A DNA stretch of 64,000 nucleotides from Candidatus Aenigmatarchaeota archaeon (GTDB lineage Archaea; Aenigmatarchaeota; Aenigmatarchaeia; PWEA01), in contig JBKHHD010000003.1 in NCBI GenBank assembly GCA_046539325.1, positions 30,024 to 94,023 of the forward strand, read 5' to 3'. A program made the position numbers and the translations under genes. The notes beneath the pieces are model-generated. The model ran no database searches. It saw nothing but the letters and a program-made list of their open reading frames with translations, and was not told the origin of the DNA. Shown piece by piece: positions 2,196 to 31,183 of this stretch; position 1 is the stretch's first letter; each line of letters opens with the position of its first letter.

Positions 2196-2319
2196 GGGAC
2201 GGTGGCTTAGCCTGGTTAGACGCCGGAAAGGAAATTTCCGTTTTTTGCCGCTTCCGGTGGGCAAAAGCGCCACGCTGATAACGTGGAAGTCGCCGGTTCG
2301 AATCCGGCCCGTCCCACCA
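2196..2319 (+). tRNA. tRNA-Ile(GAU) with a 46-nt non-canonical intron at 22/23 (2220-2265); CCA encoded
   Basis: Acceptor GGGACGG/CCGTCCC, anticodon arm CCACG-CTGATAA-CGTGG, T arm GCCGG-TTCGAAT-CCGGC. Removing 2220-2265 restores the D arm GCTTAGCCTGGTTAG|AGC. Confidence 0.92.
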
Positions 2320-2363: not shown

Positions 2364-2493
2364 GCCGGCGTGGCCTAGTGGTTAAGGCGCTGCGCTCATA
2401 AACAATAATTTATGAGCTTTGATCCGCTGACGCGGAGATGAAAAATTTTGCGGTGCAACGCAGAGAGCGAGGGTTCGACCCCCTCCGCCGGCA
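2364..2493 (+). tRNA. tRNA-Met(CAU), probably elongator, with a 57-nt intron at 37/38 (2401-2457)
   Basis: Acceptor GCCGGCG/CGCCGGC, anticodon stem CTGCG/CGCAG with loop CTCATA^A, T arm GAGGG-TTCGACC-CCCTC. Confidence 0.92.
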
Positions 2494-30304: not shown

Positions 30305-30395
30305 GTTACCAAAGTTCCATTCTACAAATTTAAACTTCAACCCAGTTGCCAAGTAAACTTTTTAACTCCAGATAAAAAGAAGTCTAATGTCGAAG

Positions 30396-30480
30396 GCGGG
30401 GGTACCCAAGTGGCCGAAGGGGCAGCGTTGAGGGCGCTGTGCACGTAGGTGCTTCGTCGGTTCGAATCCGGCCCCCCGCA
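30396..30480 (+). tRNA. tRNA-Leu(GAG)
   Basis: Acceptor GCGGGGG/CCCCCGC, anticodon arm CAGCG-TTGAGGG-CGCTG, long variable arm GCAC-GTAG-GTGC. Confidence 0.95.
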
Positions 30481-30524
30481 TCAGTAACCTCTTCTAAAAC
30501 TGTAAAATAAAAGAGAATGAAGAA

Positions 30525-30668
30525 TGGTCCCCCGACCGTGATTTGAACACGGGGCCTGTCGGTATCGGCAGAGGCGCTAATCCAAGGCACCAAATCAAAA
30601 TACCGAAGAGTTATCATCTCCGGTGCCCGTCTACAGCCGACCGCTCTGCCAGCCTGAGCTATCGGGGG
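30525..30668 (-). tRNA. tRNA-Tyr(GUA) with a 67-nt intron at 37/38 (30564-30630); CCA encoded
   Basis: C1-G72 acceptor CCCCCGA/TCGGGGG, anticodon stem GTCGG/CCGAC with loop CTGTAG^A, T arm CCGTG-TTCAAAT-CACGG. Confidence 0.93.
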
Positions 30669-30748
30669 ACTGGACTTAGTTTTGTGGAATACCTTTATTT
30701 AACTTTTGGTGCCGGAAGGCTTTTATTCCTCTGTGGGAAAATAAAGGC

Positions 30749-31183
30749 ATGGAGAAAAGGTTTGAGATCATAGAGGATGAGGCAACTGCAGATATAGCCT
30801 ACAGAGCTTATGGAGAGACTCTGGAAGAGATGTACGAGAGCGCGGCCCTCGGTCTCTTCGACATAATAACCGACATCGAGGACGTAAATACACTACAAAC
30901 AGACCTGATAACAGTTTCAGCCGAGGACCGAGAAGCTCTGTTGCTGGACTTCCTAAATGAGCTCCTGTACAGATGGGACGTGGACAAGGTCCTGTTTTCG
31001 AAATTCTCCTGTGATCTTCAAACAAAGGACGGGAGTTTGGAACTCTCCGCGAACTGCGAAGGGGAGAAGTTCGACGCCGAAAGACATGAAAACAGAGTCG
31101 AGGTCAAGGCAGTCACCTACTTCGGGATGGAGATCCAAGAAGAAGAGGGAGTTTGGACCGGAAAGATAACCATCGACGTCTGA
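30749..31183 (+). CDS. Archease
   Basis: TADIAYRAYGETLEE, LLDFLNELL and EVKAVTY motifs; C-terminal IDV. Confidence 0.93.
   Translation: MEKRFEIIEDEATADIAYRAYGETLEEMYESAALGLFDIITDIEDVNTLQTDLITVSAEDREALLLDFLNELLYRWDVDKVLFSKFSCDLQTKDGSLELSANCEGEKFDAERHENRVEVKAVTYFGMEIQEEEGVWTGKITIDV

Follow-up and report, generated by a model that had tools for sequence, protein, structure and literature searches.

Our results suggest that the intron of the tRNA-Tyr(GUA) gene of a Candidatus Aenigmatarchaeota archaeon is itself a box C/D guide RNA of reduced build, a "half-mer" with a single kink-turn, that would direct 2′-O-methylation of C39 (Cm39) on the unspliced pre-tRNA-Tyr; on the sequence evidence laid out here we put the probability of this reading at roughly 0.6. 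The gene lies in a stretch of 64,000 nucleotides (nt), referred to below as the window (assembly GCA_046539325.1, contig JBKHHD010000003.1, positions 30,024 to 94,023 of the forward strand), and was found on the minus strand at window positions 30668-30525 by ARAGORN with introns allowed. It is the sole tRNA-Tyr among the 30 tRNA genes called in this way in the 715-kb, 10-contig genome. Because of its intron, the gene is overlooked by ARAGORN at default settings and by Rfam at its gathering score, and Rfam names nothing inside the intron, whether the whole window is searched at gathering score or positions 30380-30800 at E-values up to 10. Sliding both intron cuts 1-2 nt toward the 3′ side gives an identical mature tRNA-Tyr. 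The parts of the gene and of its intron, numbered as in the window, are as follows.

30525-30668, minus strand: tRNA-Tyr(GUA) gene, CCA encoded (ARAGORN with -i; c[60548,60691] on contig C3)
30564-30630, minus strand: 67-nt intron at the canonical 37/38 position, after G37 (sequence and ARAGORN with -i)
30619-30628, minus strand: predicted kink-turn canonical stem, 5′ strand, GGGCACCGGA (10-base-pair stem in RNAfold; covarying in orthologs)
30616-30618, minus strand: predicted kink-turn bulge GAU, 3 nt
30611-30617, minus strand: box C AUGAUAA in its conserved register (U-G-A invariant in 36 of 36 introns)
30599-30610, minus strand: 12-nt spacer from box C to box D, holding guide bases N1-N8 (30599-30606), with N5 = G30603
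30595-30598, minus strand: variant box D, UUGA
30585-30594, minus strand: predicted kink-turn canonical stem, 3′ strand, UUUGGUGCCU (RNAfold; ortholog comparison)
30564-30584, minus strand: intron tail, the last 6-10 nt being the 3′ strands of the splicing helices
30559-30566, minus strand: predicted guide target, intron G-A-U (30566-30564) plus A38-A42, with C39 (30562) opposite N5 (complementarity)

The kink-turn hairpin and its conservation

A kink-turn consists of a canonical stem, a 3-nt bulge, tandem sheared G.A/A.G pairs and then a non-canonical stem. In the tRNA-Tyr intron a stem of 10 base pairs (bp), 30628-30619/30594-30585, adjoins both boxes, and RNAfold gives the same stem. Beyond the bulge, G30615-A30614 of box C stand opposite A30595-G30596 of the box D UUGA, and are the predicted sheared G.A partners of box D; the non-canonical stem would continue with U30613.U30597 and A30612-U30598. 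A first-pass annotation of the window had placed a C/D-like hairpin here, and its strings lie on the minus strand where it put them: the stem strands GGCACC (30627-30622) and GGTGCC (30591-30586), a box GAGATGA (30620-30614), a guide TCGGTAT (30606-30600) and a box TTGA (30598-30595). Its central proposal, that the guide is complementary to AU|ACCGA (30565-30559) across the junction of intron and 3′ exon and that the fifth base upstream of UUGA, G30603, faces C39, also stands. Its box C is present as a string but was set 3 nt out of register. The invariant U-G-A of the orthologous introns falls at 30616-30614, and the closest relative (L002) has AA where the annotation set its first GA (30618-30617). 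In the conserved register the spacer between the boxes (30610-30599) is 12 nt long, against 15 in the earlier one.

The same annotation had proposed searching the tRNA introns of related genomes for the motifs together with an antisense guide, and had named absence of the motifs from orthologous introns as one result that would count against it. We ran such a search for tRNA-Tyr introns on 371 genomes, all of one class, for which family, genus and locus labels (f, g and L) are those of this analysis; the module was found in part of the orthologous introns, and with it the antisense guide. BLAST with the tRNA-Tyr gene gave matches in 22 of 61 relatives and then in 118 of the 371 genomes of the class, and 53 tRNA-Tyr loci were parsed from the returned loci and 40 further stretches. 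Among these, 24 have the kink-turn and guide, 26 have a homologous intron at 37/38 in which a plain hairpin occupies that site and the in-register pairing runs are 0-3, one (L043) has a 9-bp run without the terminal-stem kink-turn, and 2 are intronless. Twelve more introns were obtained from a pattern search (with TGA, GGT and GA as fixed letters) and 13 further stretches, which brought the set to 36 distinct introns; the pattern matched in 98 of the 371 genomes, mostly by chance, as a reversed-pattern control matches too, and the introns were picked by eye. The label of kink-turn with guide was likewise assigned by eye and then tabulated, not by a blind classifier. Left out of the counts were L035 and L036, which have a module of the f20 type and a second, T-arm intron that defeated the parser, and L139, a duplicate of L138.

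The 36 introns span 5 families and 15 genera: 6 in f1 (the window's genus), 1 in f5, 17 in f17, 11 in f20 and 1 in f30. At the level of sequence, all 36 have what a kink-turn calls for, namely a flanking covarying stem, a 3-nt bulge N-N-U and a GA on each strand, directly after the bulge on one and as xxGA on the other. The bulge is N-R-U in 35 introns and UAU in one. Next to the bulge, the stem closes with C-G in 22, U-A in 5, G-C in 4, A-U in 3 and U-G in 2. Box C keeps RUGA in 35 of 36 while its positions 5-7 vary, as do positions 1′-2′ of box D, which reads AUGA (24), UUGA (5), ACGA (4), UGGA (2) or GUGA (1), always with its GA. The pair 6-1′ of the non-canonical stem is A-U in the window's intron and U-A in relatives, and alternates between these two states within f1 and f17. 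The spacer is 12 nt long in 22 introns, in agreement with the spacing of about 12 nt between boxes C and D in archaeal C/D small RNAs (sRNAs), 13-15 nt in 9, 20 nt in 1 and 43-48 nt, with an inserted hairpin, in 4. This variation (12-48 nt) is confined to the box C side, and the distance from guide to box D is constant.

A second architecture is found in family f31, where six distinct tRNA-Tyr introns of genus g94 (loci L136-L142) carry the same guide, CGGUUU plus one base, with its fifth base opposite C39 in all six. Here the order of the boxes is reversed with respect to the window: after the guide come a D′ that reads GCGA, AUGA or AGGA, a gap of 3-4 nt and a C′ that reads GUGAGCU, AUGAUUA, AUGAUUG or AUGACUG. 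The arrangement is a K-loop, which replaces the kink-turn on the terminal stem, and it covaries in its own right, with pair 5-2′ being G-C, U.U or C-G and pair 6-1′ C-G or U-A. Two architectures thus set the GA/GA motif equally far from the same guide, which is hard to explain unless the distance matters, and a fixed distance from the GA to the partner of C39 is what the D+5 rule of C/D guides demands. The module is retained in at least six families of the class.

Pairing of the guide with the 3′ splice junction

In box C/D RNAs the guide lies directly upstream of box D or D′, and the target nucleotide faces the fifth guide base. With N1 taken as the base directly upstream of box D, we tabulated the pairing of the guide with the precursor in the 36 introns. 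The pairs N4 U-A38, N5 G-C39 and N6 G-C40 are invariant, so the fifth base is a G opposite C39 in 36 of 36 introns, in addition to the six K-loop variants. N7 pairs with G41 as C (31 introns) or U (5), N2 pairs with intron nucleotide -2 in 35 of 36, and the run N2-N7 is paired in 35 of 36. The most informative position is N3, which faces the last nucleotide of the intron. This pair is A-U in 6 introns (f1), C-G in 14 (f20, f5 and genus g166 of f17) and U-A in 16 (the other f17 introns and f30), and is unpaired in none. Since the partner of N3 lies in the intron and is free of the constraint of tRNA function, this is real two-sided covariation, and it implies at least three changes on the tree.

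Among 19 aligned short introns, 80.7% of the cells are paired, compared with 32-50% after shifting the 3′ partner by 1-3 columns; the N3 pair in this set is C-G in 9, U-A in 7 and A-U in 3, with both sides changed in 10 of the 19. Shuffled 12-mer spacers reached an in-register run of 6 or more in 341 of 48,000 trials (0.7%). The window's own guide forms a run of 8 bp with a predicted duplex energy of -10.4 kcal/mol, and across the introns the runs are 6-10 bp long and the predicted energies -7.4 to -12.4 kcal/mol at 37 °C. These comparisons support the view that the junction-spanning pairing is under selection. As the guide has two intron nucleotides among its partners, only the unspliced precursor can form the full duplex; the earlier suggestion that the element would act only on unspliced pre-tRNA is thereby borne out at the level of pairing.

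The proposed methylation of C39 and its alternatives

If the tRNA-Tyr intron works as a half-mer guide, the hairpin 30628-30585 would fold as a kink-turn, with the stem, the GAU bulge, the tandem G.A pairs of AUGAUAA/UUGA and then U.U and A-U, and would be bound by L7Ae and subsequently by Nop5 and fibrillarin. The 12-nt loop closed by the boxes would pair through N1 or N2 to N8 with GAU|ACCGA, either in cis or on a second precursor molecule, displacing the 3′ strand of the anticodon stem and the 3′ splice bulge. Fibrillarin would then 2′-O-methylate C39 by the D+5 rule. On release of the duplex the anticodon stem and a relaxed bulge-helix-bulge would re-form and the intron would be excised. 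Since the splicing fold would re-form only after release of the guide duplex, methylation would have to precede splicing in this proposal.

The genome encodes L7Ae as well as fibrillarin and Nop5, the latter two in adjacent genes; the three genes lie at C1 74075-74344 and C2 22464-23733. Fibrillarin was found in 356 of the class's 371 genomes, among them all 98 of high quality, and the four guide-bearing genomes that lack a fibrillarin match are 64-84% complete. This was a point on which the guide reading could have failed and did not, and the presence of fibrillarin does not discriminate between the readings considered here.

The splicing motif bears on the order of events. The archaeal bulge-helix-bulge consists of two 3-nt bulges, a 4-bp helix between them and flanking helices (PMC4090602). 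The introns of f20 have a well-formed motif, in which the anticodon stem is followed by a bulge AG|A, a central helix C32-G, U33-A, G34.A and U35-A, a second bulge AG|A and an inner helix CGAGC/GCUCG. The cut is taken here to fall after the second nucleotide of each 3-nt bulge, which fits this family. C32 pairs with G(-3) in all 36 introns. In the window's genus the central helix has three of its four pairs, and the inner helix is reduced to 3 bp that overlap the base of the kink-turn stem; the inner splicing helix is poor in most f17 introns. The splicing endonuclease is a single open reading frame of 389 amino acids with two PF01974 domains of catalytic type (contig C6, 26737-27564, plus strand), which is noteworthy in view of the relaxed bulge-helix-bulge motifs seen here. 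The guide duplex occupies positions 38-42 together with the 3′ bulge, so that the guide-bound fold and the splicing fold are mutually exclusive.

A second complementarity is present in the same precursor. In the window's genus the intron tail CUCUGCCG is complementary over 8 bp to UGGCAGAG in the D-arm of the 5′ exon, and in most f17 and f20 introns the tail (G/A)UCGCUC is complementary to GAGCGAU at positions 22-28. The complementarity is conserved, yet it is out of register with any GA box, and the gap from it to the nearest GA varies between families; we therefore rejected the tail as a second guide.

Several observations weigh against the guide reading. The archaeal consensus is RUGAUGA for box C and CUGA for box D, and the window's AUGAUAA and UUGA depart from it at positions 5-7 and 1′-2′. 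The pair 6-1′ is A.A in f20, and the 12 introns obtained with the pattern are not independent for its fixed letters. The duplex has a conserved core of just 6-7 bp, and the window sequence offers two other 8-nt, G.U-rich complementarities to the spacer within 280 nt. A loose C...D kink-turn pattern matched 27 times in the genome and 23-33 times in five shuffles, and was dropped as evidence, as was a loose D′...C′ pattern with 195 matches against 217-247 in shuffles. The loose motif is thus no rarer than chance, and it is conservation and covariation that carry the case instead. Among public sequencing runs, no RNA run is listed for the locus. A strict regular expression for canonical double-guide C/D sRNAs gave 0 matches in the genome, against 0-2 in shuffles, which leaves the normal box usage of the lineage uncalibrated; its rRNA guides, if any, must look different from a canonical double-guide C/D sRNA. 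The 67-nt intron holds no second GA/GA (C′/D′) motif and is thus not bipartite. This brings up the strongest objection, namely that a single-site archaeal C/D ribonucleoprotein (RNP) was active in vitro but non-specific in its choice of site, both motifs being required for site specificity (Hardin and Batey 2006, PMC1635284). Moreover, the guide is attached to the same kink-turn at either end, and a duplex of 7-8 bp must form inside the closed loop. Such double anchoring could act as the ruler that a second motif would otherwise provide, or could make the duplex harder to form.

The alternative that fares best is purely structural. A kink-turn bound by L7Ae and a pseudoknot between loop and junction could serve as a checkpoint of folding or splicing that conceals the 3′ splice bulge and the anticodon-stem strand for as long as the precursor is otherwise immature, or as a chaperone of the fold, in either case without methyl transfer. 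In its favour, guide pairing and bulge-helix-bulge are mutually exclusive, the covariation is accounted for, since it proves pairing and not catalysis, and one kink-turn with a closed loop is an unusual platform for fibrillarin (PMC1635284). The conserved complementarity of tail and D-arm also hints at alternative folds of the precursor. However, a structural pseudoknot has no need of a box D GA exactly five nucleotides from the partner of C39, and this distance is kept in 36 of 36 introns and in the K-loop of f31. Also against it, five other introns of the genome, described below, put N5 exactly on position 34, a site that is C/D-guided in other archaea. On balance we consider this main alternative unlikely.

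A role in trans is considerably less probable. Here the excised and possibly circularised intron would be a stable sRNA with its real target elsewhere, for example in rRNA, and the match to its own precursor would be secondary. Stable and circular forms are on record for archaeal tRNA introns and for C/D sRNAs, and the RNP of the tRNA-Trp intron acts in trans. In the spacer of the tRNA-Tyr intron, however, only N2-N7/8 are conserved, these match the junction, and one intron partner covaries with the guide. Complementarities of 9-12 nt to the spacer elsewhere in the genome are scattered over GA-rich, coding-looking sequence in about the number expected by chance (the hits were not compared with rRNA coordinates), and none of them uses the conserved core alone. 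Least probable of all is a chance likeness, or a functionless, decaying remnant of a C/D sRNA once inserted in the intron hairpin: loose kink-turn patterns are as frequent in shuffled sequence, and the homologous plain-hairpin introns at the same place in related lineages imply that the module is dispensable for splicing, but occurrence in at least six families with compensatory stem changes, an invariant kink-turn core and three Watson-Crick states of a guide pair is hard to reconcile with absence of function.

Known intron guides and the other tRNA introns of the genome

The nearest known system is the C/D guide in the intron of archaeal pre-tRNA-Trp, which holds two guides, for Cm34 and Um39 (or Cm39). 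As described for Haloferax, Pyrococcus and other Euryarchaeota, it resembles the half-mer proposed here in its 37/38 intron, in its complementarity to its own precursor, in the use of position 39, and in a pairing that competes with the splicing fold. The Trp system depends on L7Ae, Nop5 and fibrillarin, whose genes are present here. In contrast, the host here is tRNA-Tyr, and there is one guide and none for position 34. One kink-turn takes the place of C/D plus C′/D′, and boxes C and D close a 12-nt guide loop; both boxes are variant in sequence (RUGA-NNN/NYGA), and the duplex is shorter, with a core of 6-8 bp that includes two covarying or conserved intron nucleotides. We regard the element as a variant of the tRNA-Trp intron guide that probably works like a C/D guide; because the bipartite arrangement is lacking, we do not file it as a standard C/D sRNA.

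Other precedents are more partial. The elongator tRNA-Met of Nanoarchaeum equitans has a putative C/D sRNA in its 66-nt intron (Randau 2012, PMC3491384). That case shares with ours a small-genome archaeon, a long and stable intron, box C/D elements and a GC hairpin, and by description, not by sequence, its build is comparable to that of the tRNA-Met intron in our window; in contrast to the present case, the available part of the account names no target and shows no conservation, and the host is Met and not Tyr. Synthetic half-mer or hemi C/D RNPs also have one kink-turn and one guide, and assemble and are catalytically active in vitro (Hardin and Batey 2006; Xue et al. 2010 as cited in PMC6239191). 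Those RNPs were made artificially, leave one end of the guide free and are no longer site-specific, whereas the half-mer proposed here would be natural, conserved and closed at both ends. The f31 version resembles the archaeal C′/D′ K-loop in its D′-(3-4 nt)-C′ order, tandem G.A and covarying 5-2′ and 6-1′ pairs, but stands alone, without a terminal C/D motif. A review of 2014 ("unique example") and one of 2024 give tRNA-Trp as the example of a self-modifying intron guide. Our literature search, which was thin on subscription journals and supplements, found no intron guide in tRNA-Tyr, Leu or Gln and no natural half-mer C/D RNA, and the N. equitans tRNA-Met was the one other proposed self-intron case that it returned besides tRNA-Trp.

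The tRNA-Tyr intron does not appear to be the only case in this genome. A module of UUGA, hairpin and GAUGA occurs 38 times, compared with 11-22 times in ten shuffles, and copies lie in the introns of tRNA-Trp, Met, Leu(UAA), Leu(CAA) and Gln(UUG). In all five, the 12 nt that precede UUGA are complementary over 8-9 bp to the anticodon loop of the same tRNA, with N5 opposite position 34, and none of the introns has room for a second box pair. The locations of these modules are given here.

Window 2364-2493, plus strand: tRNA-Met(CAU), with its intron at about 2401-2456
Window 2407-2418, plus strand: candidate guide of the tRNA-Met intron; N5, G2414, faces C34 (2397), with 9 bp to the anticodon loop
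Window 2419-2422, plus strand: box D′ UUGA of the same intron
Window 2423-2436, plus strand: hairpin between the boxes
Window 2438-2444, plus strand: box C′ AUGAAAA
C1 c116188: module in the tRNA-Trp intron
C2 90890: module in the tRNA-Leu(UAA) intron
C2 c24738: module in the tRNA-Leu(CAA) intron
C8 39535: module in the tRNA-Gln(UUG) intron; ARAGORN does not call this tRNA, which seems to hold further introns

In Pyrococcus, C/D sRNAs aim at position 34 of tRNA-Leu(CAA), Leu(UAA), Met and Trp (PMC7994747). The first-pass annotation had supposed that this lineage uses self-targeting, single-guide intron RNAs in several tRNAs, and at the level of sequence that supposition holds. Less was left of an argument it built on strings common to the tRNA-Tyr and tRNA-Met introns. 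Both CGGAGATGA and TTTGAT do occur in the two introns, in opposite order, but as an argument against chance this is weak: the 9-mer CGGAGATGA has 4 copies in the window against 0.72 expected, and the remaining two sit in coding-looking sequence, so the shared string by itself says little. A guide for position 39 in the tRNA-Trp intron of this genome is not claimed, as its 6-bp match to its own 3′ junction has no box D in register.

More tentatively, we propose that throughout this class of small-genome archaea tRNA introns are the cell's tRNA methylation guides, with half-mer C/D RNPs on the unspliced precursor writing Cm39 in tRNA-Tyr and a 2′-O-methylated nucleotide 34 in tRNA-Trp, Met, Leu(UAA), Leu(CAA) and Gln and then permitting splicing; we give this broader scheme somewhat less than an even chance. 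If the half-mer reading is correct, intron-encoded guides would extend to several tRNAs, and there would be a selective reason for the retention of long introns in reduced archaeal genomes. Methylation is predicted to come before splicing, and the module would offer a natural minimal C/D RNP in which to study how the methylation site is measured. One kink-turn and a guide anchored at both ends would then suffice for site-specific methylation in vivo, contrary to the behaviour of reduced RNPs in vitro.

The surroundings of these genes provided some further observations. The tRNA-Tyr gene is intergenic and convergent with a tRNA-Leu(GAG) at 30396-30480. A putative archaeal promoter box, the A/T-rich TTAAATAA (30702-30695), precedes the 5′ end of tRNA-Tyr by about 27-34 nt. 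Just upstream of tRNA-Met, a partial Rfam tRNA match lies at 2250-2308 (plus strand) of the window, and 2200-2320 on the same strand resembles a tRNA(GAU, Ile) whose 5′ half contains an insert. Within the class, many tRNA-Tyr genes have a second long intron in the T-arm (L008, L010, L013, L014, L032, L034-L036, L047, L056, L062, L063 and others), and some have inserts in the D-arm too (L124, L125, L128-L131).

Kink-turn-like modules were also seen outside the six introns. At C4 c60220-60372 ARAGORN calls an "Arg" tRNA with an ambiguous anticodon (a GUU or UAG reading) and a long D-arm insert, in which a UUGA-CGCG..GCGCG-GAUGA kink-turn adjoins the 5′ strand of the anticodon stem. Outside tRNA genes, UUGA-UCCC-GAGA-GGGA-GAUGA is found at C2 57244 (plus strand), and CCGA, a 9-bp hairpin and GAUGA at C1 c116586, about 350 nt upstream of tRNA-Trp; these two modules may be free sRNAs or other L7Ae sites.

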